DNA of 64,000 nucleotides from a virus, in the UHGV virus genome UHGV-0253196; one strand, 5' to 3'. The notes under the pieces were generated by a model, which saw only the letters and a program-made list of their open reading frames with translations, made no database searches and had not been told where the DNA came from. Positions within the stretch are counted from its first letter, which is position 1. The number at the start of each line of letters is the position of its first letter. The position numbers and the translations under genes are program-made. This document shows, piece by piece, positions 5,633 to 62,934 of this stretch.

Positions 5633-6046
5633 ATGGACGGTGACGATATCGTAAAAGTAGTAGAAGGTGAGCCGATAGTGACAGACCCCTTAGACATATG
5701 GGTGTTAGACGACCCCGCCAGAAACGGTCACGGTGAAATAGTGTGTTTAAGAGAAAATTCCACAGGTGATGATTCCTTGACACACTACGTCATAGACCAG
5801 TCGCAAATGTTTGCGGGAAAGTGTGATGATTATATCTTAGGTTACTGTTACGAAGTGACGAAAGACAAAGACGGGAAAGTGTTACAGACCAGTGTGTATC
5901 CCTACAAAGACTGGGAGACACTGAACACTATTCAGAGACTTTGGGAAGAATCACAGCGCAACAAAAGAAATCTGGATATGACAAGTGAAACACTCGTTGA
6001 CCTTGACTACAGACAGACAATGATGGAGTTAGGTCTTACACCATAA
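5633..6046 (+). CDS. hypothetical protein
   Basis: RBS AAGGAGG lies 9 nt upstream of ATG 5633. An extended -10 (TGGTATAAT) is at 5593-5603. Confidence 0.5.
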   Translation: MDGDDIVKVVEGEPIVTDPLDIWVLDDPARNGHGEIVCLRENSTGDDSLTHYVIDQSQMFAGKCDDYILGYCYEVTKDKDGKVLQTSVYPYKDWETLNTIQRLWEESQRNKRNLDMTSETLVDLDYRQTMMELGLTP

Positions 6047-6067
6047 TATGAGGAAGGAGGTCTAAAA

Positions 6068-6253
6068 ATGCCGAGTGAAGTTACCTACAAGAATTGCAAG
6101 ACATTGTATATCTTGCGCAAGGAGAGTGGAGGTCTTACTGCTCAGTTTGTGGAACAGCAGAGCAATATCCTTGACACATTTTTAATGGCAGGACGTATCA
6201 CTGAAGAACAGTACACAGAACTGAACGGTATTCTCGCAAATACAGCACAGTAA
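6068..6253 (+). CDS. hypothetical protein
   Basis: Good RBS GGAAGGAGG. Confidence 0.45.
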   Translation: MPSEVTYKNCKTLYILRKESGGLTAQFVEQQSNILDTFLMAGRITEEQYTELNGILANTAQ

Positions 6254-6271
6254 AGACAGGAGGAAGGAACA

Positions 6272-6505
6272 ATGAAGTTAAGACCAAATATCAACAAAGG
6301 CTATGTCAATGCGGGGCCTGGAACACCAGATAAGAAACCTGGAACTGGTGTTGATGTGAAATCAACTCACGTTGCAAAAGACCCTTACACTGGTAGTAAG
6401 AATCCCGGTAAGGGAAAAGACGAACCGAACCATATTGAAGCTGGCCCTGGGGACGAACAGAAAAGACCCGGCACAGGCAAACCGAAAAAGCCCGTAAAGA
6501 AATAA
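6272..6505 (+). CDS. hypothetical Lys/Pro/Gly-rich protein
   Basis: RBS AGGAGGAAGG precedes the start. Confidence 0.4.
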   Translation: MKLRPNINKGYVNAGPGTPDKKPGTGVDVKSTHVAKDPYTGSKNPGKGKDEPNHIEAGPGDEQKRPGTGKPKKPVKK

Positions 6506-29318: not shown

Positions 29319-29795
29319 TTGCCAAAGTTAAAGATTAACAGTAAGGGTGCAGAGAACAAAGAAAAAGTGCACAGAGAAGCCCAGAGAAGGGGAAAGAGAA
29401 ACAAAGTCAAAGGTGGTGAGTATGAACGCAAAGTTGCTGAAATACTCAAAGGTATGTTAGGTGTTGAGTTTGTGAGAACACCGCAGAGCGGAGGGTTTGC
29501 AAAGAAATCGGACGCAAACACCAAAGACTTTAGAGGTGACATTATACCGCTTGACGCAGACGTTGAGACGGTCTTGCATATAGAGTGCAAGAACTATAAG
29601 AACTGGGCCATGCCAAAGTGGGTAGCACAGGCTGAGAGTGATTGTCCCAAAGGTAAGATTCCTTGTATTATCTTCCACAAGTACGGAACCTCACGGGACT
29701 ATATCGTGTTAGACCTCAAACACTTCTTAAAACTTATCCATATCCCGGAGGTTATCATAAAGACCGTGACAAAGAAAAGGGGTGCTAGTAAATGA
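29319..29795 (+). CDS. PD-(D/E)xK nuclease (RecU/Hjc-like), paralogue of 26571..27092
   Basis: EYERKVAEILKG...FRGDIIPLDADVETVLHIECK. RBS GAAAGGAG lies 8 nt upstream of TTG. Confidence 0.5.
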   Translation: MPKLKINSKGAENKEKVHREAQRRGKRNKVKGGEYERKVAEILKGMLGVEFVRTPQSGGFAKKSDANTKDFRGDIIPLDADVETVLHIECKNYKNWAMPKWVAQAESDCPKGKIPCIIFHKYGTSRDYIVLDLKHFLKLIHIPEVIIKTVTKKRGASK

Positions 29796-30166
29796 TGGTG
29801 TTGTTAAATGTAAGCTGGGCTATTGTAGCGTGTGTGATTGCGCGATACCTTTACAAACACCCAATTTTAAGAATACATGGTCGTTCAATGTACCCCACAT
29901 ACAAAGATGGTGATGTTGTGCTGGGCTTAAGATACAACTACAAACACTGTGACATAAGACAAGGTTCTGTAGTTGTAGTGAATAGTCCGAATGGTGTTAA
30001 AGCCATAAAGAGAGCCACAGCGTTTAAGTACAAAGAAGGTATTATGTATGTGTGGGTTGAGGGTGATAACCCCAGTGAAAGTTATGACAGCAGAAACTAC
30101 GGGTGGTTGACTACAAAAGACATTGTAGCGATTGACCCTAAACCAAGAGTAAAGGAGAAAGTATAA
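29792..30166 (+). CDS. type I signal peptidase (S26 family, SipW-like)
   Basis: N-terminal transmembrane segment. GRSMYPT matches the catalytic Ser box. GDNPSESYDSRNYG matches SPase box E. Confidence 0.7.
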   Translation: MMVLLNVSWAIVACVIARYLYKHPILRIHGRSMYPTYKDGDVVLGLRYNYKHCDIRQGSVVVVNSPNGVKAIKRATAFKYKEGIMYVWVEGDNPSESYDSRNYGWLTTKDIVAIDPKPRVKEKV

Positions 30167-30168
30167 CC

Positions 30169-30468
30169 ATGGGTAAGACAGAAAACACCAACACCGAAGG
30201 AGTTACCATTGTCCATGTTTCCTCAGACACCAACGTGCAGAAGTTGGCAGGTAGTCTTTTAACTGCCATTGAAAATAGCACCGCTGTAGAGGTGAGAGCG
30301 ATTGGTGCCGGGGCAGTGAACCAGATGTATAAAGCTATCGCAAGTGCGAGAGGTTATGTTGCGCGTAAAGGACGTGACCTGTATATAAGACCCGGCTTTG
30401 ATGAAGTCATTGAAGAAGGTTCTGAAAAGACAAAGACCGTCATGGTCGCAAGACTTATTGTGATGTAA
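30169..30468 (+). CDS. SpoVS-like (stage V sporulation protein S) homologue
   Basis: AIGAGAVNQMYKAIASARGYVARKGRDLYIRPGF...TKTVMVARLIV aligns along the whole bacterial SpoVS. Confidence 0.7.
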   Translation: MGKTENTNTEGVTIVHVSSDTNVQKLAGSLLTAIENSTAVEVRAIGAGAVNQMYKAIASARGYVARKGRDLYIRPGFDEVIEEGSEKTKTVMVARLIVM

Positions 30469-30699: not shown

Positions 30700-31086
30700 A
30701 TGAAAACGAGTATTACAAAAATGTTCACCTTTGAAGCGGCACACAGATTACCTAACTATGTAGGTGCGTGCGCTAATCTTCACGGTCATTCTTATAAACT
30801 TGCCGTGACTGTCACCACAGATAAGCCTTTAAATAAAGACCGCAACGCAACGGGTATGATAATGGATTTTAAAGTCCTCAAAGACATTGTGAACCGAAAG
30901 GTTGTCGGCCCGTTAGACCATTCACTGTTAAATGACTTTTACTACAACCCCACCGCCGAGATTATGGTAGAAGACTTTGCCGCGAATATACAGGCAGGAC
31001 TTGATGATTTTGATGAAAGTGTGTACGTTTCAAACATTAAGTTGTGGGAGACCGAAGACAGCTATGCAGAGTGGTCGAGAGACTAG
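30700..31086 (+). CDS. queD: 6-carboxy-5,6,7,8-tetrahydropterin synthase QueD
   Basis: PTPS-fold signature FTFEAAHRLPNY...CANLHGHSY. 128 aa. Confidence 0.8.
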   Translation: MKTSITKMFTFEAAHRLPNYVGACANLHGHSYKLAVTVTTDKPLNKDRNATGMIMDFKVLKDIVNRKVVGPLDHSLLNDFYYNPTAEIMVEDFAANIQAGLDDFDESVYVSNIKLWETEDSYAEWSRD

Positions 31087-31103
31087 AGAAAGAGGTGTTG
31101 TAT

Positions 31104-31745
31104 ATGATGTTCTATCATGAGATATTTTTATCTATACAGGGTGAATCCAGTGACGCAGGACGCCCTTGTATATTTGTAAGAATGTACGGCTGTCCGATTG
31201 GGTGTTCATATTGCGACCAGCCCCAGGAAAAGAGTGACAGAAAGCGTATTGGTGTTGACACCATGTTATCAAAGATATACGCATTGAAGTGTAAGAACGT
31301 GTGCTTCACAGGTGGAGAACCTATGATTTACGCGCAGGAACTTATACCCGTGTTTATCGAACTTACCGACCGGGGCTACACCGTGTCCGTAGAGACCAGC
31401 GGGTGTGTAGAGTTAGAGTCTTACCCCGTGAGAAGGTCATTTAAGTACGTGATGGATATTAAATGCCCCAGTAGTGAGGTGTCAGAGAAGAACATTTACA
31501 GAAACCTTGCGTACTTACAGCCACATGACGAGGTGAAGTTTGTCGTGGCAGACGAGAAGGACTACCAATTTGCCCGTAACGTGTTAAAGCGTTATAATAC
31601 CAGTGCGCAAATTTTATTTAGTCCCATGTTTGACACAGACGGCAAAGCAGTGATAGGACAAGAACTTGTGAACTGGATTTTGAGAGACAAGCTGTTTAAT
31701 GCCCGGGTTCAGATTCAGTTACACAAAATTCTGTCAGTGAGGTAA
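31104..31745 (+). CDS. queE: 7-carboxy-7-deazaguanine synthase QueE (radical SAM)
   Basis: IFLSIQGESSDAGRPCIFVRMYGCPIGCSYCD is a QueE-type N-terminus with a CxxxCxxC cluster. GGEP motif. RBS AGAGGTG. Confidence 0.8.
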   Translation: MMFYHEIFLSIQGESSDAGRPCIFVRMYGCPIGCSYCDQPQEKSDRKRIGVDTMLSKIYALKCKNVCFTGGEPMIYAQELIPVFIELTDRGYTVSVETSGCVELESYPVRRSFKYVMDIKCPSSEVSEKNIYRNLAYLQPHDEVKFVVADEKDYQFARNVLKRYNTSAQILFSPMFDTDGKAVIGQELVNWILRDKLFNARVQIQLHKILSVR

Positions 31746-31749
31746 ACAC

Positions 31750-32472
31750 ATGATTGGAAAACGTAACCCAGAAAAAGACCAAGACTATTACAATGGTCTG
31801 ATTGAGAGTATATGGTATAATCTAGTAGAGGTTAAATCAGAACTTACAGGTATTAAAGAGGAAGTAAACAAAGACCATCCATTTAAAGAAGACCCAGGAC
31901 ACCTTAGTGCTGAAAGATTACCCGTAAAGAAAAATACTATTAGGGAGCACTTAAAGGAGGGTTATCTTCCTAAAAGACCCGTTAAGGTGTTCAGTAACCG
32001 GGACGAAGCATATGATTGTTTATACTACTGGTTAGAGAAGTTATATCTTACCGATTGGGCCATAAAACTTAAATTCGTGCGGATAAATGAAGAACCACTT
32101 AATGACGAACAGTCTGGCGACGTACGCAGAGTATTTGAGCAGAAAGCGGCGATAATCACCCTTCCATTGCCAGACGATAACTTTCTTGACGCTTGCAAAA
32201 GCAGTGTTGCGAGAGTGGGCCACGAACAGTCTTTGGTGCATGAGTTATTGCACTTAAAGGAAGACCCTGTACAGTTTGTAGAAGATGGTGATTATACCGC
32301 CGGGTTCTATAACATACACAAACACAATGAAGTTGAAATGATGGCAAGAACACTGTTAATGGTGAAGTACAACTTATCGCCGTCTTACTTCAATAACGTA
32401 GACAGAAAGGAGAACGACAATGGCTTGTGGCACAAAGAAACCGAAGACACCGAAGAAACCCAAAAAGAATAA
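31750..32472 (+). CDS. hypothetical protein with an HExxH motif (HELLH)
   Basis: SLVHELLHL. It lies inside the deazaguanine cluster. Confidence 0.4.
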   Translation: MIGKRNPEKDQDYYNGLIESIWYNLVEVKSELTGIKEEVNKDHPFKEDPGHLSAERLPVKKNTIREHLKEGYLPKRPVKVFSNRDEAYDCLYYWLEKLYLTDWAIKLKFVRINEEPLNDEQSGDVRRVFEQKAAIITLPLPDDNFLDACKSSVARVGHEQSLVHELLHLKEDPVQFVEDGDYTAGFYNIHKHNEVEMMARTLLMVKYNLSPSYFNNVDRKENDNGLWHKETEDTEETQKE

Positions 32473-32487
32473 GAAGTAGGACAACCG

Positions 32488-32518
32488 AAGACCTGTGCTA
32501 ATAAAGACAGGTCTTTTC
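32488..32518 (+). terminator. stem-loop (AAGACCTGT..ACAGGTCTT followed by TT)
   Basis: Perfect 9-bp stem. Confidence 0.5.
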
Positions 32519-32520
32519 GT

Positions 32521-32847
32521 ATGAAAGGAATACATGACATGGGACAGATATCAAAATTAGCTGAAAATGCGTATGAAACCGCAGTTGCGCACGGTTGGTA
32601 TGACACACCAGTTTCGTTTGGTGAGGAAGTTGTGTTGTGTCACAGTGAGTTATCCGAAGCACTACAGGAGTTTAGAGTAGGAGGGTTTGGAACACGTAAA
32701 GACAAGATAACTGAGGAACTAGCAGACACAGTTATAAGGATTTTTACTCTAAGTTCAAGACACCAGCTTGACATTGAAGCGGCAATATTAAAGAAGATGG
32801 AAAAGAACAAAGACAGACCATACAGACATGGAGGAAAGTTACTATGA
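32521..32847 (+). CDS. MazG-like nucleoside triphosphate pyrophosphohydrolase (start may be ATG 32539)
   Basis: EExxE...EELAD motifs: CHSELSEALQEFR, EELADTVIRIF. Confidence 0.6.
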   Translation: MKGIHDMGQISKLAENAYETAVAHGWYDTPVSFGEEVVLCHSELSEALQEFRVGGFGTRKDKITEELADTVIRIFTLSSRHQLDIEAAILKKMEKNKDRPYRHGGKLL

Positions 32848-34559
32848 GTAAACCAGTTGTAGTATTAAATAGTGGAGGTTTTGACAGCACCGTATTGTTA
32901 CATTATGTAAAAGAGGTTGAAGAAGACAGTCTTGTATACTCACTGTTTTTTGAATACGGTCAGCGTTCCATGGAACAAGAAAGACGCTGTGCGCGTAAAA
33001 ACTCTGTAGACCTTGACGCGCAGTATATAGGTGTCAGTCTTCCAAAGATATACTGGACTGGCAGTGACTTCTATAATGAGGGAGGGTTTAAGGTAGACAA
33101 GCAGTATCTTGAAATGAGAAATTTAATTTTTCTGTCATATGCTCTTTCCTTTGCAGAGAGTGTAGGTGCAGAAAAGGTTTATCTTGCAGTGCTGAAATCA
33201 CACCACGGGTATCCAGACACATCACCTAGATTTATTAGTGCTATGAATGAGGTATCGAATATAATAGGTGTTAGTATTGAAGCACCATTTATAGAGAGTG
33301 ACAAATACAACCTTGTTGGTCTTGCTTACAAGTACGGCATTACTGAAAACGACTTTCACAGTTGTGATAAACCTACTACAGACGGGAAACCGTGTGGCGT
33401 GTGTGATGATTGTGAGGTAGTAAAAGAAATCATGTCCCAGTTAGAGTTAAAACACCCACGGGACGTAAAGTTTAGTCCAAGAGGAACACATGAACAGTAT
33501 GAGACCGTCTATAAAGAGTACCCGGTGAGTGAGTTAAGATTCACCATAAATAACAGGTGCCAGTTTAGTTGCGCTCATTGTTACTACGGATATGAGACTT
33601 CACACCGGGAAGACCTATCAGAGAAGGAACTTACTGAATTTGCTATCAGACTTCACAAGCAGTTTGGGTTTAAGAGTATTCACTATTGCGGCAAAGAACC
33701 TATGATTGATAGCGCGATATTTGATTCCATAAGGACACTTAGGAAGGTGTTACCCGTTGACATTGAATACAGTGTTGTAACAAACGGCTTAACTGTGACT
33801 GAATACTATGAGCAGTTAGTGAATGAAAGGTTGTTAGACAAGGTGTTCCTGTCCGTTGATGATATTGAGACAGTGACGGATAAAGAACAGAAGTTACGAA
33901 ACACCAGTAGGCATATATTAAATGCTATAGACTTCCTGGTTACGAATAAAGTTCCGTTACAAGTGTTTATTGACCTTCACAAAGGTAACTACAACTACAT
34001 CAATGAAATGTTGTATCAGTTAGTGAAGTTAGGTGTTAGAGAGTTTTTCGTCCGGGCAATAATGCCAATAGGTAACGCCGAAGACCTTGAACCTCTGTCC
34101 ATAGCAGAGATAGCGGAAGTGTACAGTAAACTTAAGAGGTTGACAAACTATTACCACACCACCGTTAAAGACTTTAAAGTACTTCTTACTTTAGGTAAAG
34201 ACGTTATAGTCCGTATGCAGGAGCGTGACATTGACGATATGACAAAAGACGAGGAAGACTTAATAGAAATGGTTGCAAAGTCTTTAGAGTATAACACAGA
34301 CGTTGTTGTGCCGGGAATGAGTATATACCCGGAGGAAGTTTGCACACAGTTTCTTGATACTCTTACCCTTACATCAGACGGGTATGTGTTAGGCTGTACT
34401 TCCGCTGTAAGCTGTAGTGAGTACTGGAAACACAGCGCGTTTGATATAAATACACCAGACGAGGACTTCAAGAATCGTTTGATTGAAGCAAGAAGTAAGG
34501 TGTTAGAGTATGACGGTGAAAATTGTCCATTTTCTTGTCCCAAAAGTATTGACATTTAA
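32844..34559 (+). CDS. queC: fusion protein: QueC (7-cyano-7-deazaguanine synthase) N-terminal domain plus a radical SAM domain with a SPASM/twitch-like C-terminal Cys cluster
   Basis: N-terminus has VVLNSGGFDST (PP-loop) and the QueC zinc motif CDKPTTDGKPCGVCDDC. Residues from about 225 onwards have CQFSCAHCYYG (Cx3Cx2C), GKEPM, and C-terminal GCTSAVSC...CPFSC. Confidence 0.7.
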   Translation: MSKPVVVLNSGGFDSTVLLHYVKEVEEDSLVYSLFFEYGQRSMEQERRCARKNSVDLDAQYIGVSLPKIYWTGSDFYNEGGFKVDKQYLEMRNLIFLSYALSFAESVGAEKVYLAVLKSHHGYPDTSPRFISAMNEVSNIIGVSIEAPFIESDKYNLVGLAYKYGITENDFHSCDKPTTDGKPCGVCDDCEVVKEIMSQLELKHPRDVKFSPRGTHEQYETVYKEYPVSELRFTINNRCQFSCAHCYYGYETSHREDLSEKELTEFAIRLHKQFGFKSIHYCGKEPMIDSAIFDSIRTLRKVLPVDIEYSVVTNGLTVTEYYEQLVNERLLDKVFLSVDDIETVTDKEQKLRNTSRHILNAIDFLVTNKVPLQVFIDLHKGNYNYINEMLYQLVKLGVREFFVRAIMPIGNAEDLEPLSIAEIAEVYSKLKRLTNYYHTTVKDFKVLLTLGKDVIVRMQERDIDDMTKDEEDLIEMVAKSLEYNTDVVVPGMSIYPEEVCTQFLDTLTLTSDGYVLGCTSAVSCSEYWKHSAFDINTPDEDFKNRLIEARSKVLEYDGENCPFSCPKSIDI

Positions 34560-34576
34560 TACTCATGGTGTATAAT
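34549..34576 (+). promoter_or_regulatory. sigma-A-type promoter TTGACA-16-TATAAT embedded in the 3' end of the queC-fusion gene
   Basis: Read directly from the sequence. A 6-bp hairpin (GTAGGT..ACCTAC) lies in the leader. Confidence 0.55.
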
Positions 34577-34665
34577 TGTATTCAGAGATTTAGGAATGGC
34601 GTAGGTCTTCCGTATTTACCTACAGCCTAGTCCCTTGCTCACAATACGATAAGGAGGTAAACACC

Positions 34666-34842
34666 ATGATGAATGTTTACGCAGAATCCCCCAAAGGTGG
34701 CGGGCGTGCCGCTGGTGGTAATGCACAGCAGACTGCACCCGCACCGACCAGAGGTGGAGTAAGAGCCACACTGGGTAGAGCGGCTACAGGTGCAAGAAAC
34801 GCGCTGAACAGGATTATTCGTCCCAGAGGACGTAACCGTTAA
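34666..34842 (+). CDS. small Gly/Ala/Arg-rich basic protein (58 aa), markedly GC-rich, not in the track
   Basis: Strong RBS AAGGAGGT lies 8 nt upstream of ATGATG. It has its own promoter and terminator. Confidence 0.4.
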   Translation: MMNVYAESPKGGGRAAGGNAQQTAPAPTRGGVRATLGRAATGARNALNRIIRPRGRNR

Positions 34843-34864
34843 TCAGTCCCGCACCAAGAAAGAG

Positions 34865-34898
34865 AGAAGTCCTAATAAACTGGGACTTCTTTTCTTTT
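34865..34898 (+). terminator. rho-independent terminator (AGAAGTCC..GGACTTCT followed by TTTCTTTT)
   Basis: Read directly from the sequence. Confidence 0.65.
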
Positions 34899-34944
34899 AC
34901 CCGGATTTATGTTATACTGTCTTAAAAAGAAAGGAGACAACACA

Positions 34945-35199
34945 ATGTATATTGAATCACCAAGAGACAAAGAAGGAGTTAGAGACTGGGAAGCAGAAGA
35001 AGACGCACAGGCTTTATTAAAAGCCCGCCAAATTAACTCAGACCCCGTGAGAAAAGCGAAAGCACAGGCGGTTATAAGGAGTACCCAGGCCACGTTACAA
35101 GGTGCGTTGACTGGGACACCTCCTGTAAACACACCGAGTTCAAGAAATAACCCCGCCACTATCGGACAGTTAAACATTCCCGGCAGAAACAAAAGATAA
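34945..35199 (+). CDS. hypothetical protein
   Basis: RBS AAAGGAGACA precedes ATG 34945. Confidence 0.4.
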   Translation: MYIESPRDKEGVRDWEAEEDAQALLKARQINSDPVRKAKAQAVIRSTQATLQGALTGTPPVNTPSSRNNPATIGQLNIPGRNKR

Positions 35200-35254
35200 C
35201 ACCAGAACACCACAAACACATTATATACTTACAGAAGACAGAAAGGAATCGCGC

Positions 35255-35806
35255 ATGAACGATAAATACAATTTGAGTTCAAAAGAGCAGGAGATAGCCA
35301 GCCATATAAAAGGTATAATGAGTTTGCTAGGTATTGAGGAAACACCATCAAACATAGACACCCCAAAGCGGATAGCGAAAATGTATAGCCGCGAAGTGTT
35401 TAGCAGTGAAGGTAAAGACCTAGCCGAACTTGACGCACAAATGACTACTTTCATTAACACGGATTTAAGTTCAATGCCCGTGACAATGACCGGGATTAAG
35501 TTTAGTTCCATGTGTGCACACCACTGGCTACCATTTTTCGGTGAAGTAGAGATAAGCTACACACCGTTTACCAAAGTGATTGGGTTGTCAAAACTGCCGC
35601 GAGTTGTGAAGTGGTTCAGTAAAAAGCCACAGACCCAGGAAGAAATGACGAAAGAGATAGGGAACTACTTAGCAGTGTTCCTTAATCCCCGTAAACTGTC
35701 CGTGAAGGTAACAGCATTGCATACTTGCGTAGCGTGTAGGGGAATTGAGAGCGTAGGGACAGAGACCATAACTGAATACAGATATAACAGAGGGGAAGAC
35801 GCTTAA
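35255..35806 (+). CDS. folE: GTP cyclohydrolase I FolE
   Basis: MCAHHWLPFFGEVEISYTP matches CEHHLVPF. GLSKLPRVVKWFSKKPQTQEEMT matches GLSKLxR...QERLT. Confidence 0.8.
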   Translation: MNDKYNLSSKEQEIASHIKGIMSLLGIEETPSNIDTPKRIAKMYSREVFSSEGKDLAELDAQMTTFINTDLSSMPVTMTGIKFSSMCAHHWLPFFGEVEISYTPFTKVIGLSKLPRVVKWFSKKPQTQEEMTKEIGNYLAVFLNPRKLSVKVTALHTCVACRGIESVGTETITEYRYNRGEDA

Positions 35807-35870
35807 CGGCGTCTTTTCTTTTGCGCGCAATATGATATAATAAGTACATAACTTATGAAAGAGGTGAACC

Positions 35871-36452
35871 ATGAAGGTAGCAATATTTAATGGCAGTTCA
35901 AGACAGCATAGTAACAGTGAACTAATCTCAGGTGAATTAAGACGTATATTTGAGCGTCTAGGGTATGACACCGTAGTGCTCAATGCAAGTGACATGACAG
36001 GCTGTAGACCATGTAATCAATGTGGATTCTGTAGTTCAGTAGGTAGCTGTATATATGAAAGAGATACTCTGGGACAACACCATATTAAATGTATATGGGC
36101 TAGTGACATATGGGTGATTGTAACACCTGTGTATTGCTTTTCCATGTCCCCGCCGACCTTGACGTTACTGTCCCGGTTTTATTCTTATGGCCCAGAAGTG
36201 TTGCAAGATAAAGTTGTGTCTTCTGTGATAGTAAGTGGCAGTAGCGGTAGATATGGTGGAAAGAGCCTTGTAAATGAATCCTTTAAGCGATACTTTGAAT
36301 ATACAGGTGCTAACTATACAAACAAGCCCATAGGTATCACTACAAACGACACCGTGTTAGAAGACCTGCATACACTTACACCACGGTTAAGACTATTTTG
36401 TAAAGACTTGATAAGGAGAGCGAAAAATGCTGAAAATAGTACCAAGGACTAA
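35871..36452 (+). CDS. iron-sulfur flavoprotein (NADPH-dependent FMN reductase fold with a compact Cx2Cx2Cx2C..C motif)
   Basis: MKVAIFNGSSRQHSNSE flavodoxin-like start. CRPCNQCGFCSSVGSC cluster. Confidence 0.55.
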   Translation: MKVAIFNGSSRQHSNSELISGELRRIFERLGYDTVVLNASDMTGCRPCNQCGFCSSVGSCIYERDTLGQHHIKCIWASDIWVIVTPVYCFSMSPPTLTLLSRFYSYGPEVLQDKVVSSVIVSGSSGRYGGKSLVNESFKRYFEYTGANYTNKPIGITTNDTVLEDLHTLTPRLRLFCKDLIRRAKNAENSTKD

Positions 36453-38595
36453 AAAGAAACCCGTACCAAAGAAAAAGGTTCCACCAAAAAAGAAGACCAC
36501 CACGCCCGTAGAGATAGACGAGACCCCGGAAGTAGAGGAAGAACCAAAAAAGAACTATAGTTCTCTGCATGATGTAATGGACACTAACAGACCTTTTAAG
36601 TTAGTGTTTTCTGGCGTTGAGAATGAAAGCTACTATGACATACTTTTTGATTGCGGCGTGCGTAGCTTTCTAATGTCCTATCACTATATCCAGAGCAAGC
36701 ACATTAAAATGCGTGATAGGTTTGATGGGACGGGTGTTAAACTGTTTATTGATAGTGGCGCGCATACATACCAGAATGACCCTAAATATCTGGAACTTCC
36801 GTTAGAGTATTGGGAGAAGCACTTGCAGAAGTACCTTAACTGGGTTGAGCGGAATAGAAAGTATATATTTGCCATAGCAAGTTTTGACTTTGAGAACATT
36901 GTAGGTGCAGACACAGTAGATAGGTGGAACCGAGAATACTTAGAACCGTTCATGTTGCGCACAGGTATACCAGTGTGTTTCGTGTGGCACCAAAATTCAA
37001 AGTATGACTGGGAGTTCTATTGCAAGCGTTATCCCTATGTGGGATTTTCGTCTGTCAATACAGAAGGTGAAGCCATAGAACTATCAGAGTATAAACAAAG
37101 ACTGAAAGTGGCAGAGAAGAACGAAGCACTTGTACACGGGTTCGGTATGACGCGTACAGGTATGTTGACTGAACTTCCCTTCTACACCTCAGATAGTACG
37201 ACATGGCTTGTGGGTTTGCAGTATGGGGAAATGAACTACTGGAATGGCACCAAAATGAACCGCCTTAAGAAAGACAAGTGGAAATCACCTGCTGTACTAT
37301 CAGAGTTTGAGAGAAGGTATAACTCAGACCAAACACTGTTAGAGCAGGAAGACATAACCGAGGTGATAAAAGTCAATGTGTTTGCTTTCCTTGACGCAGA
37401 GGATTATATCGTCACCAAGCTACGTTCTCAAATGTACTGGTTAAAAGCAAAGACAACTAAACGGGACGTGAATAACTTACCGCCAGACTTCTTTCCAGAC
37501 CCTGACATGGTGATGGTGTGTTTAGACGAAGGTGATAAAAGTGTAGTGTCATATGCTCAGAAATTTAATATCAACCCGGAATATGCTGACGCTGACTTTT
37601 TAGTGTGTTGTGCTACATTGTTCCTTAACTGGGATAACTCAATATACAGTGACTGTAAGGACATACTCATTGAGGACGAAGCAGTGATTAAATCCCTCCA
37701 TGACACACTGATAAACAGGATAGTCCCAGGTGTTGATGAAATGGTCGAAGACCTAACGCAGTTATTCAAAGAGTGCATAAGCGGCGAGAATGACAAGCTA
37801 TTACAGATAGGCACCAACTTTGACCGCGCACAGAAAGAGCGTGAACACTATATAGAGGAAGAAGACGAGTATGAGGAAGTAGAAGTATCAGAAGGTGAGA
37901 TAAGGGCCGCTGTGTATAACAACATTCCTAAAGACCGTCTTCTTACCGCAGGTGAAGATTCCGCGCCAGAGATTACGGAACTTGACGCAGAAATATTTAA
38001 CGGCACAGGTATAACACCACGTTTTGATGATAGAGGTAAATTCCTTAAAGGTGTTAGACAAGTAAAGAAACCAAAGTCCGTGTACAGTAAGAAGTTCCCT
38101 AAACTGGCGTGTGCTACGTGTTTCGCGGCAAGTACGTGTCCAGAATACAAAGACGGCTATGTGTGTGCTTATAATAAGCTGTTCAGCAACTATGACACAC
38201 GTAACATGGGTGACATTGTAGAAGCTATGCAATCCATGGCAAGTGTGAACATGGGCCGCCTACAGAAAGCAATGCTGTTTGAGACACTAGGTGGTGCATT
38301 AGACCCACAGGTATCACAGCTTATTAATCAGAACGTCACTTTGCTGAACAACCTTAAGTCAATGTATGAGAACACCAACGCAATGGTGCTTAAACAGACC
38401 CGCAATATAAGACAGGACGGAAGTGTAGAAGAATCTGTGCAAGTAACCAATCCTCAGAGCATGGGTATTATGGAACAGTTACTATCAAAGATAATGCCTA
38501 GTAGTGATAAAGAAGACGAGGTTATAGTTGAATCAGAGGACGTAACACCCAAAAAGAAAAGCAGTGCATATGCAGACCTGGAAGAAGACGATTAA
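36427..38595 (+). CDS. dpdA: DpdA-like tRNA-guanine-transglycosylase-fold protein (putative DNA 7-deazaguanine transglycosylase) with a lysine-rich N-terminus and a roughly 400-aa C-terminal extension
   Basis: LFIDSGAHTYQ is compatible with the TGT DSGGFQ Asp motif. HGFGMTRTGMLTELPFYTSDSTTW fits GxGxT...DxFDC. It is co-located with folE, queDEC. A late Cys cluster CATCFAASTC...C is present. Confidence 0.5.
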   Translation: MLKIVPRTKKKPVPKKKVPPKKKTTTPVEIDETPEVEEEPKKNYSSLHDVMDTNRPFKLVFSGVENESYYDILFDCGVRSFLMSYHYIQSKHIKMRDRFDGTGVKLFIDSGAHTYQNDPKYLELPLEYWEKHLQKYLNWVERNRKYIFAIASFDFENIVGADTVDRWNREYLEPFMLRTGIPVCFVWHQNSKYDWEFYCKRYPYVGFSSVNTEGEAIELSEYKQRLKVAEKNEALVHGFGMTRTGMLTELPFYTSDSTTWLVGLQYGEMNYWNGTKMNRLKKDKWKSPAVLSEFERRYNSDQTLLEQEDITEVIKVNVFAFLDAEDYIVTKLRSQMYWLKAKTTKRDVNNLPPDFFPDPDMVMVCLDEGDKSVVSYAQKFNINPEYADADFLVCCATLFLNWDNSIYSDCKDILIEDEAVIKSLHDTLINRIVPGVDEMVEDLTQLFKECISGENDKLLQIGTNFDRAQKEREHYIEEEDEYEEVEVSEGEIRAAVYNNIPKDRLLTAGEDSAPEITELDAEIFNGTGITPRFDDRGKFLKGVRQVKKPKSVYSKKFPKLACATCFAASTCPEYKDGYVCAYNKLFSNYDTRNMGDIVEAMQSMASVNMGRLQKAMLFETLGGALDPQVSQLINQNVTLLNNLKSMYENTNAMVLKQTRNIRQDGSVEESVQVTNPQSMGIMEQLLSKIMPSSDKEDEVIVESEDVTPKKKSSAYADLEEDD

Positions 38596-38626: not shown

Positions 38627-38654
38627 TTGACAGTTTCCTTATTAAAGCTATAAT
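38627..38654 (+). promoter_or_regulatory. sigma-A-type promoter TTGACA-16-TATAAT
   Basis: Read directly from the sequence. Confidence 0.6.
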
Positions 38655-39438: not shown

Positions 39439-39467
39439 TTGACAGCATTTACCATATGTGCTACACT
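39439..39467 (+). promoter_or_regulatory. sigma-A-type promoter TTGACA-17-TACACT
   Basis: Read directly from the sequence. Confidence 0.5.
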
Positions 39468-39514
39468 GTACCAGTATCACTATTAAACAACCACATACAA
39501 AAGGAGGAAAAGAA

Positions 39515-40195
39515 ATGGCAGTAATCAGAACAAGTACAGGTGAGAAGCCCAAGAGAGGAGAGCTGTACTACGTCTATCCGCAGATGGCGTGGGACAATGA
39601 TGATTCTGAGAAAGGGACAAGCAGAACTGATGTAAAGAGTGGGAGACCCGCTATCATTATTGGTAATGACGCTGGGAATGGTGCTTCTGATATGTGTGTT
39701 ATTGCGTGGCTTACACGTCAAGACAAAGCACCTTTACCAGAACACGTTACAGTACCTTCCGGCCCCGCCAAAGAATCAACTATGTTGCTGGAACACCCCA
39801 TCACCGTGTCTCAATCGCGTTTAGGTGAAAAGATTAGCACCTGTTCCACACCATTAATGAAGAAAGTTGATTCTGCATTGCTGGTATCTATAGGTATATG
39901 TGATACCTTACAAGACGCTGAATATCTGTTAAAATGTCGTGCTATGGTGTATGACTTGCAAGCGCAGGTAGATACATATAAGCACGAACTTAAAGAGAAA
40001 GACGCGGAAATTAAATCATTAAAAGATAAACTTGAAGTTAGTGACACCAATATAAGGGATTTAAGTAACAGGTTAGAGTGTGCAGAAAATCAGAACACCT
40101 ATAACCCAAGTGATTTAAAACTTGAATTGGTGTTAAATGAGCGGGATTATTTGAGGGACCTTGTTAAGCTGTCAATGACAGGAGGTATTATCTAA
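39515..40195 (+). CDS. MazF/PemK-like (CcdB/MazF fold) domain protein with a C-terminal coiled coil
   Basis: GELYYVYP, KSGRPAIIIGND, MCVIAWLTRQ, PEHVTVP and ESTMLLEHPITVSQSRLGEKI parallel the MazF/PemK motifs GDIVxVDF, RPAVVLS, VVVPLTS, HVxL and IDKxRL. Confidence 0.45.
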   Translation: MAVIRTSTGEKPKRGELYYVYPQMAWDNDDSEKGTSRTDVKSGRPAIIIGNDAGNGASDMCVIAWLTRQDKAPLPEHVTVPSGPAKESTMLLEHPITVSQSRLGEKISTCSTPLMKKVDSALLVSIGICDTLQDAEYLLKCRAMVYDLQAQVDTYKHELKEKDAEIKSLKDKLEVSDTNIRDLSNRLECAENQNTYNPSDLKLELVLNERDYLRDLVKLSMTGGII

Positions 40196-59277: not shown

Positions 59278-62200
59278 GTGTCTCATAAATTGGGACGTTT
59301 TATTTTGTGGTGGAAAATAACACTGTGTTTTCTGCTGTCATGGGTGTTAGACCTTTGTGATTGTACACTTGTTAGAGTTATAGAGGTCACAGTGTTTGCC
59401 GGGAGAGTGAAGACTACAGACCTAGTGAACATGATATTTAATTTCTGTGAGCTATATTCTGGCAAGACTATGTTCCCGTACCAAGCACAGTTCTCAAAGA
59501 GGGTTATCCGTTCAATACTGTTAAATGACGGTGAAGAAATAACAGCCCTGTTTGCGCGACAATCTGGTAAGTCAGAGACCATAGCAATAACAGTTGGTGG
59601 TCTTATGATTATGTTGCCACAGCTTGCCAATATGCCAATGTTCGCGGGAGACACAAGACTTGAAATGTTCAAAGACGGTCTCTGGGTTGGTATATTCGCG
59701 CCCGGTAAACGACAAGCAGAGATTACCTATAACCGTGTAAGACAGCGGTTGCAGTGTAAGACCGCATTAGCAGTAATGCAAGACCCGGAATTTAATCTAT
59801 ACTTCCACACGTCCAACGGGCAAACGTGTTCACTGTCTAACGGTTCTTTCGTTACGTGTATATCAGCGTCCGACCAGTCCAACATTGAGGGTGAATCTTT
59901 CAAACTTATTATATGTGAGGAATGTCAAGACATATCCAACTATAAGATTAGAAAGTGTTTGACTGGTGACACACTTGTGCTGACTGATAGTGGTAAGTAT
60001 AAAAGGCTTGATGAAATAGTAAAAGACCAAACAGATAGTGTTGTGTGCTATGACAGTACAATGTCTTATTTGCAGGTGAGAAAGCCCAAAGAGTATTTAG
60101 ATAATGGCGTTCAAGACGTATATGAGATAACACTAGATAACGGGGAGACTATAAAAGCTACAGAAAACCATCAGTTTTACACGTATAACCAAAAGACCCA
60201 CGGCGAGAAGTGTGCATTTAGGACTGTAAATCAAATAAAGGACAGTATGTGTAATGACCGTCCTTTAAGAATAGGTGTACCTGCGAGATTGCCTTACTTT
60301 TCAGATGAAAAGCAGAATGACTACGAAGAAGGGTTAATTTTAGGTTATTTCTTAGGTGACGGGTGCACAGTATCGACACCTAAGTTTATAGGTGATATAC
60401 CTACGTGTAATAGACTTTATGATACTATTCGTAGATGTATAGACCCGGATATAAAAATGACAGAAACACACTACAATGAACAGAATGGTATGTTAGAGGT
60501 GTGTTTTTCTACTGAAACGAATAAGAAGTATTCTAACTCACTTAGGAACTTCTTTATGTGGTATGGTTTAGCCGATAAAACGGGTGTTGATAAAAAGTTG
60601 CCAGAAAACACGCTGTACTCAAAACAGTTCTATAGAGGTCTTATAGAAGGACTTATAGAGACAGACGGCAGTATAGAGTGTTGTTGTACTAAACCTGTTA
60701 TATCCTTTGCGGGAATATCAAAACACCTTGTAGAACAAGTAAAAGAAATACTTAATCGTTTTGGTGTTCATTCTACAATACACAGTGTTGATAACACAGG
60801 AGGTTTATCTAAAAACTCAAAGACCTTGTGGTTACTTCACATTAAGTCAGTTCATGACATAAGGTTGTTTGCGGAGGAATTTGTGTTATTTAGAAAGCAA
60901 GTGTATTTGAATGAAGCACTTGAAACAGTCAAGGACAAAGAAGATAGGGAGGTGTCTAAATACTATTCCGAAGAAATGCGTTTCTGTGCGGTAAAGAGTA
61001 TTGAGTATGTAGGTAAGGAACACACCTACTGTTTAAGTGTTGAAGGTAGAAACTTTATAGCAAATGGTATGATAAGTTCAAATAGCATACACCCAATGGG
61101 CGCCGCTTATAATGCTACCATAGTTAAGATTGGTACTGCTACCACCTTTAAGGGTGATTTTTATGACGCTATACAGCGTAACAAGACCAACTACGAGCAT
61201 AAGAAAAAAGAGTACCGCAAGCGTGGCAGTAATATATCTACACTTGTTCGGAACCATTTTGAGTATGACTATAAAGTGGCCGCTAAGTATAACCCTAAGT
61301 ACGCCAAGTATGTTGAACAGGAAATGAAGCGTTTAGGCGAAAACTCAGACGAGTTTAGAATGGCGTACTGTGTTACACCAGAAACGCGTATACTTACAGC
61401 AGACCTACGACACGTAAGGGCAGACCAAATTAAACCGGGAGATAAGTTGATAGGTTTTGATGAAAATGTACCAAGTAAGTATGGACAAAGAAGATTCAGA
61501 GAGTCTATTGTTGAAGATGTGGGTGTGATACAAAGACCTTGTTATAAGTTGACACTTGAAGATGGAACCAGTGTAACAAGTTCATCTGAACATATGTGGT
61601 TAGTGTTTACCGCAGGAAGTAGAACACAGTGGAAGAAGACAGAAGATTTAATGCTTACTGACCGGATATATAAAGTAAGTGACGTGTGGGATACCCCAGA
61701 TGAACTTAATTATAAGATAGGATACTTATCCGCCGCATTTGACGGGGAAGGTTGTGTGTGCCAGTTAAAAGGTAAAATCAGTCAAGTGTCATTTTCACAG
61801 CGTAACAATGCTATGCTTAAAAAAGTAAAACAGTATCTAACAGATTTAGGGTTTACTTATGGTGAACGGGTAGAGCATAGAGAAGGTTACGATTCTGTTC
61901 ATCATTTGTACTTAACAGGTGGTAAATATGAATTGTATAGATTTTTAGGTACAGTAAGACCACAAAGATTGCTGAATAATTTTGATGTTAATAGATTAGG
62001 TACTCTCAGATGTGTAAATTATGCTAGTAGAGGTTTTACACATCCATGTGTTATAAAAAAGCAGTTTATAGGTGTTCAGACAGTTATACCTATAAGGACT
62101 TCTACACGAACCTTTGTCGCTAATGGTTTTGCTAGCCATAACTGCTTAGAGTGGATTATCGAACGTGGTATGTTCGTTGATATAGATAAGTTTGAGGTTG

Positions 62201-62934
62201 CAAATGGTGAACCAATGCTTGAACGTGTTTCTTATGACAAGAAAGCTAAACACGTTGCTGGTATAGACGTAGGTGGTAAGAATGACGATACCATTATCAC
62301 CATAGTAGAGGTAGACTGGTCTATGCCTGTTATCATGGAGGAACGTACAGAAGATTCCGGGCAAAGAATCATGTATGAAGCGTATAACACCTTTATTGTA
62401 GACTGGTGTTGTATAGCAAATGAGCCGGATTATGAAATTCAGTACAACATGATAATACACTACTTAAACAATTTCTGGGTAGTCCGTGTTGTGTGTGACG
62501 CAACCAGAGAGGCAAGTTTGGCCCATAGACTAAGAGCAAATTTAAGGTGTGAAGTCATACCATACATTTTCACCACGGTGTCTAAGTCCGAACTGTACAA
62601 GCTGTTAGACACAGAAATATCTTCCGGGCGCGCAAGAGTTCCATGCGGTGAAGCTACGAAAGAGACCAAAGAGTATAAGTCATTCATGAAGCAGTTAGGT
62701 GATTTACAAAAAGGCTGGTCTGGTGCGCACATGGTATGTTGCCACGGTTCCGGGAAAGACGACCATGATGATTACTGTGACAGTTGGGCTTTAGCTGTGT
62801 GGGGTGCTAGTAGTAAGGGAGAAGAAAATAACACAGAGACACGGGAAAATAAGTTCATGAAGAAGACACCAAACGAAAAGACCGCAAACAACAGACGTAA
62901 TTGTTTGACGGCGCGAAGAATGAGAAGGAGGTAA
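59278..62934 (+). CDS. terL: terminase large subunit interrupted by two inteins; the extein is about 584 aa. The start is uncertain: GTG 59278 gives a hydrophobic N-terminus, and the real start may be ATG near 59431 or 59473
   Basis: Walker A ARQSGKSE, Walker B-like LIICEE, and a C-terminal nuclease-like acidic region. The portal gene follows. Confidence 0.7.
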   Translation: MSHKLGRFILWWKITLCFLLSWVLDLCDCTLVRVIEVTVFAGRVKTTDLVNMIFNFCELYSGKTMFPYQAQFSKRVIRSILLNDGEEITALFARQSGKSETIAITVGGLMIMLPQLANMPMFAGDTRLEMFKDGLWVGIFAPGKRQAEITYNRVRQRLQCKTALAVMQDPEFNLYFHTSNGQTCSLSNGSFVTCISASDQSNIEGESFKLIICEECQDISNYKIRKCLTGDTLVLTDSGKYKRLDEIVKDQTDSVVCYDSTMSYLQVRKPKEYLDNGVQDVYEITLDNGETIKATENHQFYTYNQKTHGEKCAFRTVNQIKDSMCNDRPLRIGVPARLPYFSDEKQNDYEEGLILGYFLGDGCTVSTPKFIGDIPTCNRLYDTIRRCIDPDIKMTETHYNEQNGMLEVCFSTETNKKYSNSLRNFFMWYGLADKTGVDKKLPENTLYSKQFYRGLIEGLIETDGSIECCCTKPVISFAGISKHLVEQVKEILNRFGVHSTIHSVDNTGGLSKNSKTLWLLHIKSVHDIRLFAEEFVLFRKQVYLNEALETVKDKEDREVSKYYSEEMRFCAVKSIEYVGKEHTYCLSVEGRNFIANGMISSNSIHPMGAAYNATIVKIGTATTFKGDFYDAIQRNKTNYEHKKKEYRKRGSNISTLVRNHFEYDYKVAAKYNPKYAKYVEQEMKRLGENSDEFRMAYCVTPETRILTADLRHVRADQIKPGDKLIGFDENVPSKYGQRRFRESIVEDVGVIQRPCYKLTLEDGTSVTSSSEHMWLVFTAGSRTQWKKTEDLMLTDRIYKVSDVWDTPDELNYKIGYLSAAFDGEGCVCQLKGKISQVSFSQRNNAMLKKVKQYLTDLGFTYGERVEHREGYDSVHHLYLTGGKYELYRFLGTVRPQRLLNNFDVNRLGTLRCVNYASRGFTHPCVIKKQFIGVQTVIPIRTSTRTFVANGFASHNCLEWIIERGMFVDIDKFEVANGEPMLERVSYDKKAKHVAGIDVGGKNDDTIITIVEVDWSMPVIMEERTEDSGQRIMYEAYNTFIVDWCCIANEPDYEIQYNMIIHYLNNFWVVRVVCDATREASLAHRLRANLRCEVIPYIFTTVSKSELYKLLDTEISSGRARVPCGEATKETKEYKSFMKQLGDLQKGWSGAHMVCCHGSGKDDHDDYCDSWALAVWGASSKGEENNTETRENKFMKKTPNEKTANNRRNCLTARRMRRR
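59956..61083 (+). mobile_element. intein 1 (376 aa) with a LAGLIDADG homing-endonuclease domain, inserted after YKIRK in the terminase ATPase domain
   Basis: CLTGDTLVLTDSG start and NFIANGMISSN end, with +1 Ser. Internal LILGYFLGDGC and GLIEGLIETDGS. Confidence 0.65.
61369..62142 (+). mobile_element. intein 2 (258 aa, LAGLIDADG-type) in the terminase nuclease domain
   Basis: CVTPETRILTADL start and TFVANGFASHN end, with +1 Cys. Internal IGYLSAAFDGEGCV. Confidence 0.65.

Follow-up and report, generated by a model that had tools for sequence, protein, structure and literature searches.

Which reaction would a phage protein carry out that joins QueC, the synthase of 7-cyano-7-deazaguanine (preQ0), to a radical S-adenosylmethionine (SAM) domain? 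The question is raised by a gene (32844..34559, plus strand) of the virus genome UHGV-0253196, of which a stretch of 64,000 nucleotides (the window) was analysed. FolE, QueD and QueE yield 7-carboxy-7-deazaguanine (CDG), QueC-type PP-loop enzymes adenylate the carboxyl group of CDG and convert it to the amide (7-amido-7-deazaguanine, ADG) and then to the nitrile (preQ0), and DpdA replaces guanine in DNA with the completed base; in phages, 7-deazaguanine modifications of the DNA block both restriction enzymes and Cas9. The gene is a single continuous open reading frame (ORF) of 571 amino acids (aa) with an ATG start, as indicated by Pfam, its homologues and an AlphaFold2 (AF2) model, and it very probably encodes a genuine fused enzyme of this pathway. 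We somewhat favour a role of its radical SAM domain on the deazaguanine base, or on an intermediate, before insertion into DNA.

A QueC–radical SAM fusion in a phage 7-deazaguanine cluster

A preliminary description of this DNA had placed a QueC domain followed by a radical SAM domain in the ORF, which translation and Pfam searches showed to be exact. PF06508 (QueC) matched residues 5-193 (E 1.9e-33, 116 bits, cut-off 22) and PF04055 (Radical_SAM) residues 235-381 (E 9e-14, 52 bits, cut-off 29.5). Each of the motifs named in that description was also read from the translation: the PP-loop SGGFDS (aa 10-15, 32871-32888), the four-cysteine zinc site C174-x9-C184-x2-C187-x2-C190 (33363-33413), the CX3CX2C motif CQFSCAHC (aa 239-246, 33558-33581), the GxEP motif in the form GKEP (aa 283-286, 33690-33701) and the C-terminal cysteines 500, 518, 524, 561 and 565, which include C500-x12-G-x4-C518 (34341-34397) and CPFSC (aa 561-565, 34524-34538). 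The QueC domain (aa 1-200, 32844..33443), delimited by PF06508, a PADLOC QueC match (1.4e-19) and invariant motifs, is followed by a helical linker (aa 201-227, 33444..33524; AF2 helices at 205-210 and 216-225, predicted local distance difference test (pLDDT) 96-98), a radical SAM core (aa 228-445, 33525..34178), for which PF04055, invariant motifs and the AF2 pattern agree, and a twitch-type auxiliary iron-sulfur region (aa 446-571, 34179..34556), recognized by its conserved cysteines and its alignment to the auxiliary-cluster segment of MoaA. The protein belongs to the QueC family (PF06508), with a zinc spacer (x9) one residue above the canonical C(x)8CxxCxxC, and to the radical SAM superfamily, having CX3CX2C, a GGE-like SAM-binding motif and, in the AF2 model, the strand and helix pattern of a partial TIM barrel. 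Conservation statements and the AF2 model were based on 117 homologues with 30-40% identity; the model of the whole protein reached a pLDDT of 94 and a predicted TM score (pTM) of 0.90, and F219 in the linker was almost invariant. Because of this pTM and the confidently modelled helical linker, the two fused domains would be expected to act as one rigid body.

The preliminary description had also named two findings that would speak against such an enzyme, a frameshift merging two genes and a C-terminal half belonging to a routine, unrelated phage radical SAM family. Searching 5.8 billion proteins gave 202 clusters; in at least 120 of these, the proteins have 545-575 aa, both Pfam domains in one ORF and 33-41% identity to the query. 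When the C-terminal half alone was compared by HMMER with 1.84 billion representatives, 46 matches below 1e-30 were obtained, and the best approximately 55 matches were nearly all proteins of about 550 aa that aligned from about residue 215 on; given this length and this alignment start, these are fusions as well. An identical protein is encoded on IMG/VR contig UViG_3300006487_000005 (L018) and is deposited in UniProt and BFVD as A0A8S5QS09, '7-cyano-7-deazaguanine synthase [Myoviridae sp. ctgXL3]', and three public sources contain the identical fusion sequence. The gene itself has no A/T run of seven or more and no G/C run of six or more. An assembly or frameshift artefact is ruled out by the single ORF of more than 200 clusters with 30-40% identity, the independent assemblies in which the fusion is kept, the identical copies, the lack of homopolymers and the confident AF2 linker, and we give the merging of two genes by such an error practically no chance; the fusion is genuine and conserved. 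Close homologues of the C-terminal half were all QueC fusions or genes of the same cluster. In the INPHARED phages, matches to this half covered at most two-thirds of it and the lowest E-value (3e-5) belonged to MoaA-like genes, which rules out a routine phage radical SAM family. The fusion is carried by hundreds of uncultured phages of about 85 kb that are abundant in the gut metagenomes of humans and animals. In metagenome-assembled genomes (MAGs) it was confined to contigs of 84-86 kb, which are phage genomes.

No QueC–radical SAM fusion was described in the literature searched, including surveys of phage deazaguanine modifications, a 2026 paper with a sequence similarity network of the QueC family and a 2026 preprint on deazapurine genome mining. 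The architecture had been taken to be unknown, which holds for its description in these papers but not for the databases, since the identical protein is in UniProt and a homologue from a MAG is in nr. Databases name the protein only '7-cyano-7-deazaguanine synthase', an annotation that conceals 350 residues of unexplained enzyme. The same name is borne by BFVD entry A0A8S5LXK5 (Myoviridae sp. ctZgq1, 446 aa), which aligned to the full-length model over 525 columns with 19% identity (E 1e-23) and may be another QueC fusion variant.

The gene lies in a tailed-phage genome, as the window also encodes tail fibres, an endolysin, helicases, DnaB, a primase, SSB, PolA, a UvsX-like recombinase, a Cas4-like exonuclease, RusA, a ligase and a terminase. 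FolE, QueD, QueE, QueC and DpdA are all encoded within 30700-38595 on the plus strand, as are the flavoprotein, MazG-like and HELLH-motif genes described below, and the fusion is a variant of the known phage 7-deazaguanine DNA-modification cluster. QueD (6-carboxytetrahydropterin synthase, 30700..31086, PF01242, E 2.9e-29) and QueE (the radical SAM enzyme 7-carboxy-7-deazaguanine synthase, 31104..31745, NCBIfam QueE, E 2e-57) precede the fusion, and FolE (GTP cyclohydrolase I, 35255..35806, PF01227, E 3.4e-44) and a DpdA-like DNA 7-deazaguanine transglycosylase of 722 aa with a long C-terminal extension (36427..38595, phrog_887 'queuine tRNA-ribosyltransferase', E 1e-72) follow it. Related loci, roughly a dozen of them distinct, comprised four from ENA/Logan, about eight distinct ones from IMG/VR (twelve stretches with several repeats) and three MAG contigs of 8-86 kb from GTDB. 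QueD, QueE and FolE were syntenic in all of these, and the gene order RusA, S26 peptidase, SpoVS, QueD, QueE, (variable ORF), QueC–radical SAM, (small ORFs), FolE, (FMN reductase), DpdA was found in every locus examined. No QueF, Gat, ArcS or QueF-L gene was present in the window or within 10 kb on either side in the related loci; a QueF query of approximate sequence detected only FolE there, the expected weak T-fold similarity.

The DpdA homologue had no Pfam tRNA-guanine transglycosylase (TGT) or PADLOC DpdA match, and its putative identity is based on the PHROG profile and on homology to the DpdA of Bacillus phage BCD7 (gp021, 41.7% identity, listed as DpdA by Hutinet 2019) rather than on Pfam. 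It is unusually long (722 aa; relatives 650-757), with a transglycosylase-like part at about aa 50-330 and a C-terminal half that contains a weak match to the small-terminase-like phrog_6902 (aa 554-703) and a cysteine-rich stretch.

Phage BCD7, the split gene and the QueC half

BCD7 (NC_019515, 93.8 kb) is the closest isolate. As in the window, a Cas4-like exonuclease, RusA, S26 peptidase, SpoVS, QueD, QueE, QueC, small basic ORFs, FolE and a large DpdA are encoded, and its QueC is of the same divergent subtype as that of the fusion family. In contrast to the window, the BCD7 QueC is a stand-alone protein of 215 aa, and the phage has neither a radical SAM domain nor a flavoprotein like the iron-sulfur-flavoprotein (Isf)-like FMN reductase encoded downstream of FolE in the window. 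BCD7 has been listed among the phages with DpdA, FolE, QueD, QueE and QueC, i.e. of the preQ0 type (Hutinet 2019, Supplementary Data). Since BCD7 has the same neighbourhood and QueC subtype without these two elements, the radical SAM domain is an add-on to a preQ0-type pathway.

Evidence from the opposite direction came from the only close stand-alone homologue of the radical SAM half with an intact motif set, P0156 (369 aa), which is encoded in the order FolE–radical SAM–FMN reductase–DpdA. Its homologues were all fusions and no relative of it was found in IMG/VR. Because even this rare split form sits next to FolE, the flavoprotein and DpdA, the radical SAM domain functionally belongs to the deazaguanine pathway. 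Two more distant stand-alone relatives were rejected as split genes, P0159 because the twitch cysteines are absent and P0182 because of its unrelated bacterial context. In L012, the one contig with the split radical SAM gene, a serine-resolvase and OrfB/TnpB (IS607-like) element (536-2351) is located directly upstream of FolE, where QueD, QueE and QueC would be expected, and an insertion or rearrangement at this site may have produced the gene fission.

Within the QueC half, L8, S10-G11-G12, D14-S15, R92-N93, D125, K154 and the four zinc cysteines were invariant. An alignment with the QueC proteins of E. coli, a Rosebush-type phage (preQ0) and CPt10 (ADG) and with the Gat-QueC proteins of 9g and PaMx25 showed that, of the residues found by experiment to be essential in E. 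coli QueC, the equivalents of Y35, R99 and Y131 are kept (Y38, R92 and Y123), and that the equivalent of Y189 is replaced by Asp or Asn (SCD or SCN, not SCY) in the fusion family and in BCD7. The Y189A variant of E. coli QueC is inactive (PMC13329287, section 6). In the window protein, YxQxHxxE reads YGQRSMEQE, with the His lost and one extra residue (family YGQ[RK][SN]), VPxRN reads LEMRN (family mostly [LI][EH]MRN, with VP kept in a few members) and YPDC reads YPDT (family YxD[TG], with the Cys kept in a few members). The score against the NCBIfam QueC equivalog TIGR00364 was 98.8 bits, under the cut-off of 150.3, and by this score, the Y189 position and the motifs the fusion QueC falls outside the canonical preQ0 synthase signature ('Cluster 1', PMC13329287). 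The same deviations occur in the stand-alone BCD7 protein, and the loss of the His and the Cys is also seen in Gat-QueC. They are therefore older than the fusion and unusable for reading the product, and an assignment of the product from QueC motifs was dropped.

The altered QueC motifs could be taken to mean that the pathway still ends in preQ0 or ADG, with the radical domain supplying a step or a nitrogen donor that the divergent QueC lacks, in a route adapted to anaerobes. The missing equivalent of Tyr189, which is essential in E. coli as judged from the Y189A variant, the missing conserved His and Cys and the low equivalog score are in line with this, as are the anaerobic hosts implied by the ribonucleotide reductase genes NrdD/NrdG of related loci. 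BCD7, however, has the same divergent QueC in an otherwise identical cluster without a radical SAM domain, so this QueC subtype evidently works alone, and we know of no radical route from an amide to a nitrile. We regard an unchanged end product as quite unlikely.

The radical SAM half and its predicted reaction

In the radical SAM half, E230, C239, Q240, C243, H245, C246, H280, G283, E285-P286, N314 and S337 were invariant, and further towards the C-terminus C500, D512-G513, G517-C518, Y527 and one C-terminal cysteine. All 117 homologues contain C-x16-19-C (mostly x17) enclosing G-x4-C, which corresponds to the CX9-15GX4C signature of twitch and SPASM domains, and all have at least one further cysteine 45-55 residues after it, as expected of a twitch domain. 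The second SPASM half-motif, CX2CX5CX3C, was found in none of the 117, many of which have two to five other tail cysteines at variable spacing, and SPASM (PF13186) gave weak precomputed matches in four members. Of the SPASM/twitch-like cysteine cluster proposed in the preliminary description, the twitch (half-SPASM) signature was thus recovered and the full SPASM half was not. The minimum conserved set would be three cysteines for one auxiliary cluster, which would allow one iron site to stay open. In MoaA, the auxiliary cluster has such an open site and binds a guanine nucleotide.

Comparison with known families placed the radical half under every curated NCBIfam cut-off, the best match being archaeal MoaA (TIGR02668, 3e-17, 62.6 bits against 325), followed by a tungsten-cofactor maturase, NirJ/AhbD, PqqE and prokaryotic viperin. 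MoaA (1e-6), viperin-like enzymes and SkfB led the PDB sequence matches, PADLOC returned pVip (1e-13), and the C-terminal region aligned to the auxiliary-cluster segment of MoaA in the PDB alignment. No RaSEA entry was among the best 25 of 46 matched NCBIfam families, where the existence of a RaSEA model was not verified. A structure comparison of the C-terminal half, as proposed in the preliminary description, gave a SPASM/twitch-like fold with SkfB, anSME, SuiB, MoaA and BlsE as nearest neighbours and ChlB and CteB also among the top ones; for QueE, named there for comparison, neither the profile nor the compact fold was matched, and the radical half is no QueE duplicate. Identity to known twitch and SPASM enzymes was only 11-21%. 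With scores under all curated cut-offs and best matches to MoaA, viperin and SkfB, the radical half is by its sequence a distinct member of the SPASM/twitch clade, about equidistant from peptide maturases and small-molecule enzymes. It differs from SkfB, anSME, SuiB, CteB, MoaA, BlsE, PqqE and BtrN in being joined to QueC and confined to phage deazaguanine clusters.

These matches bear on the possibility that the substrate of the radical SAM domain is a nucleotide without relation to the 7-substituent, such as GTP or another nucleoside triphosphate in the manner of MoaA or viperin, or that the domain is a redox or structural accessory to QueE or QueC. Besides the MoaA and viperin matches, an alignment of R232 with the triphosphate-binding R17 of MoaA (HMMER) and a MazG-like gene directly before the fusion in the window point in this direction. 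The scores are far under the curated cut-offs, however; no Arg was seen by eye at the positions of MoaA R266 and R268 in the fusion protein or the family consensus, in a register uncertain by one residue, so that membership among GTP 3',8-cyclases is supported neither by the equivalog score nor by these residues. In addition, the MazG-like gene is not conserved, and an accessory role alone does not account for SAM-binding motifs that are invariant throughout a family of more than 200 clusters. We consider such a function improbable.

Equally, the presence of SkfB, SuiB, ChlB and CteB, maturases of ribosomally synthesized and post-translationally modified peptides (RiPPs), among the top structural neighbours could indicate a peptide or protein substrate. 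The QueC-like domain would then join CDG to a small protein through an amino group, and the SPASM/twitch domain would modify this peptide. In favour of this, QatC and Cap9 deazaguanylate proteins, and immediately 3' of the fusion are small Gly/Arg-rich ORFs that have a consensus promoter of their own. Set against this, MoaA, BlsE and anSME scored nearly as high as the peptide maturases, PADLOC matched the QueC half to its QueC model only and not to QatC, a RiPP recognition element or other leader-binding domain is absent, and the association with DpdA and the base-synthesis genes is strict. The small ORFs are also present in BCD7, which has no radical SAM domain, and this rules them out as RiPP precursors tied to it. 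A peptide-directed function appears very improbable.

A step on the deazaguanine itself thus remains the reading that we prefer. The QueC domain would activate the carboxyl group of CDG with ATP and take it to the amide or nitrile stage (ADG or preQ0). The C-terminal domain would cleave SAM with a [4Fe-4S] cluster and have at least one auxiliary cluster of the twitch type, bound by the three universal cysteines. It would add one step, acting either on what QueC releases or on an intermediate still bound to QueC. The base passed to DpdA would then be other than plain preQ0. This proposal is suggested by the invariance of cofactor-binding residues across the 117 homologues, which indicates constraint on both domains, by the lack of any other tailoring gene (QueF, Gat, ArcS or QueF-L) in the window and the related loci, and by the SPASM/twitch-type fold of the radical half and the alignment of its auxiliary segment to that of MoaA. 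A modified preQ0 derivative, as had been proposed at the outset, is the best reading of a locus with complete FolE, QueD, QueE and DpdA functions; whether the product is amidino, alkylated or another derivative was pure conjecture in that proposal and is so here.

The likeliest chemistry, put forward with low confidence, would be a remodelled C7 substituent. The options include an amine co-substrate with radical C-N scission, radical addition to C8 or to the nitrile, cluster-mediated reduction to 7-aminomethyl-7-deazaguanine (preQ1) and action on the DNA nucleotide. The first of these would follow the logic of ArcS and RaSEA: an amine would be added at the activated carbon of C7, after which radical scission of a C-N bond would leave an amidine of the archaeosine base (G+) type. 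To our knowledge, ArcS-RaSEA is the only system in which a 7-deazaguanine side chain is tailored by radical chemistry. In Euryarchaeota, ArcS forms complexes with the radical SAM enzyme RaSEA, and preQ0 is converted to G+ via preQ0-Lys (PMC11298593). The resemblance lies in the physical coupling of an enzyme acting on the C7 nitrile carbon to a radical SAM enzyme that finishes the substituent, and is one of functional analogy only; unlike the fusion, ArcS and RaSEA are two proteins, ArcS is a TGT paralogue, and the substrate is preQ0 already in tRNA. An amine route is chemically plausible, since QueC paralogues couple CDG to amines other than ammonia, RoyL using amino acids and QatC and Cap9 protein N-termini. 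Formation of an amidine in the specific manner of RaSEA is rather unlikely.

Among QueC-type enzymes, a close parallel is Gat-QueC of phages 9g and PaMx25 in the 2'-deoxyarchaeosine (dG+) pathway (PMC10516641), in which QueC is likewise joined to another catalytic domain, one that changes the substituent at C7, and lacks both the YxQxH His and the YPDC Cys. There, however, the partner is N-terminal and a class-II glutaminase, and VPxRN and the SCY tyrosine are kept; in the fusion protein no GATase match was found with Pfam or NCBIfam, and the PP-loop begins at residue 10. QatC, Cap9 and RoyL share with the fusion the PP-loop scaffold that adenylates CDG. The fusion differs from QatC, whose pattern is variant, in keeping the canonical Cx8-9CxxCxxC zinc motif, and from all three in its context of DpdA and DNA modification rather than defence or secondary metabolism; no Qat genes or genes of cyclic-oligonucleotide-based antiphage signalling systems (CBASS) were found near the fusion in the related loci.

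Several points weigh against a pre-insertion step on the base. Free CDG, ADG and preQ0 have no sp3 C-H bond for the 5'-deoxyadenosyl radical, so that a co-substrate or an unusual radical addition must be assumed. The active-site deviations of the QueC half, judged by comparison with BCD7, cannot be read as an adaptation to a radical step, the nearest structural neighbours include peptide maturases besides small-molecule enzymes, about half of the loci lack the flavoprotein, and the fusion is not carried by any isolate.

The first of these points would be removed if the radical SAM domain worked after insertion, DpdA placing preQ0 in DNA and the radical domain modifying the base or deoxyribose of the inserted nucleotide (dPreQ0), with QueC serving partly as a deazaguanine-recognition module. 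A nucleotide embedded in DNA has sp3 C-H bonds, which the free base does not, and the radical SAM domain was always found together with DpdA. RaSEA and ArcS act on a polymer or nucleoside and not on a free base (PMC11298593), and the bacterial Dpd system is reported to turn preQ0 into ADG after insertion (PMC10164549). On the other hand, fusion to QueC, a free-base enzyme, indicates consecutive small-molecule steps, Pfam, NCBIfam and PHROG scans found no nucleic-acid-binding domain in the fusion protein, and the split radical SAM gene sits between FolE and the flavoprotein and is not joined to DpdA. Action after insertion is in our view unlikely, and a step before insertion remains preferred.

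Each new 7-deazaguanine derivative known to us so far came with a new tailoring enzyme (Gat-QueC, QueF, DpdL, DpdM or DpdN). It is a tentative proposal that the fusion makes a derivative outside the eight known DNA forms, for example with an alkyl, adenosyl or substituted amidine group installed at C7 or C8 by radical chemistry, which DpdA would insert into the DNA of a widespread, uncultured lineage of phages of about 85 kb infecting gut Clostridia. If the product is new, this would mean a further DNA base, made by a new class of radical SAM reaction on a purine analogue that has no obvious hydrogen to abstract; if it is G+ or preQ1, an anaerobic route that is new and needs neither Gat, QueF nor ArcS. 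The conserved fusion, with BCD7 lacking the radical SAM domain as a natural control, makes this a precise and testable hypothesis.

Neighbouring genes and other features of the window

Between FolE and DpdA, the window encodes the iron-sulfur-flavoprotein-like FMN reductase (35871..36452, PF03358, E 7e-16), which had no sequence homologue in the PDB at E<=1e-3. Its cysteines C48-x2-C51-x2-C54-x5-C60 were invariant in seven homologues, the family form being CX2CX2CX5-11C, which we take to be the compact motif of iron-sulfur flavoproteins. The gene occurred only in clusters with the radical SAM domain, in about half of them, and was located directly 3' of the split radical SAM gene in L012 and L013. 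Flavin-mediated activation of multi-cluster radical SAM enzymes has an experimental precedent (PMC10470005). Because of its Isf-type cysteine motif, the protein fits the role of a candidate dedicated donor, which, where present, would give low-potential electrons to the radical SAM clusters.

The slot between QueE and the fusion contains an ORF of 240 aa with an HExxH-like HELLH motif (31750..32472), which had no match in Pfam, NCBIfam, PHROGs or PADLOC. Homologues of 97-143 aa occupy it in L004, L020 and L026-L028, and unrelated ORFs elsewhere; since the slot ORFs are not homologous across loci, a conserved partner at this position is ruled out. The MazG-like pyrophosphohydrolase gene (32521..32847), whose PF12643 and PF03819 matches were weak and under the cut-off, overlaps with its stop codon the start of the fusion (ATGA) and was found only in the window and in the near-identical L018. 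L004 contains a dGTP diphosphohydrolase-like gene (5851-6432, PF18909) near ThyX and dCMP deaminase, and together these genes suggest nucleotide-pool manipulation in the phage group. Directly 5' of QueD, an S26/S24-type signal-peptidase-like gene and a SpoVS homologue (29792-30468) were present in all related loci and in BCD7, a conserved pair that may point to spore-forming Bacillota as hosts.

Within 34549-34842, a promoter with a perfect sigma-70 consensus (TTGACA-16-TATAAT, 12/12) overlaps the last codons of the fusion; in the 90-nt leader that follows, Rfam detected no preQ1 or other riboswitch and only a chance Histone3 match (E 0.81). Downstream are a Gly/Arg-rich basic ORF of 58 aa with a strong ribosome-binding site (34666-34842) and a related, longer small ORF (34909/34936-35199). 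Homologues of these, with a VYAxP-like N-terminal start and a C-terminal RxRGR tail, occupy the equivalent position in every related locus, BCD7 having two of them (gp023/gp024), and the small ORFs are conserved in the deazaguanine cluster independently of the radical SAM domain. A second perfect sigma-70 promoter (12/12) lies just 3' of DpdA (38627-38654), followed by a gene for a PemK/MazF-like protein of 245 aa (39458-40195) that is kept downstream of DpdA in related loci. Finally, the large terminase ORF (59278-62934, 1218 aa) contains an intein between its Terminase_6N and Terminase_6C parts, with Intein_splicing, Hint and LAGLIDADG_3 matches at about aa 222-602 and a LAGLIDADG homing endonuclease.

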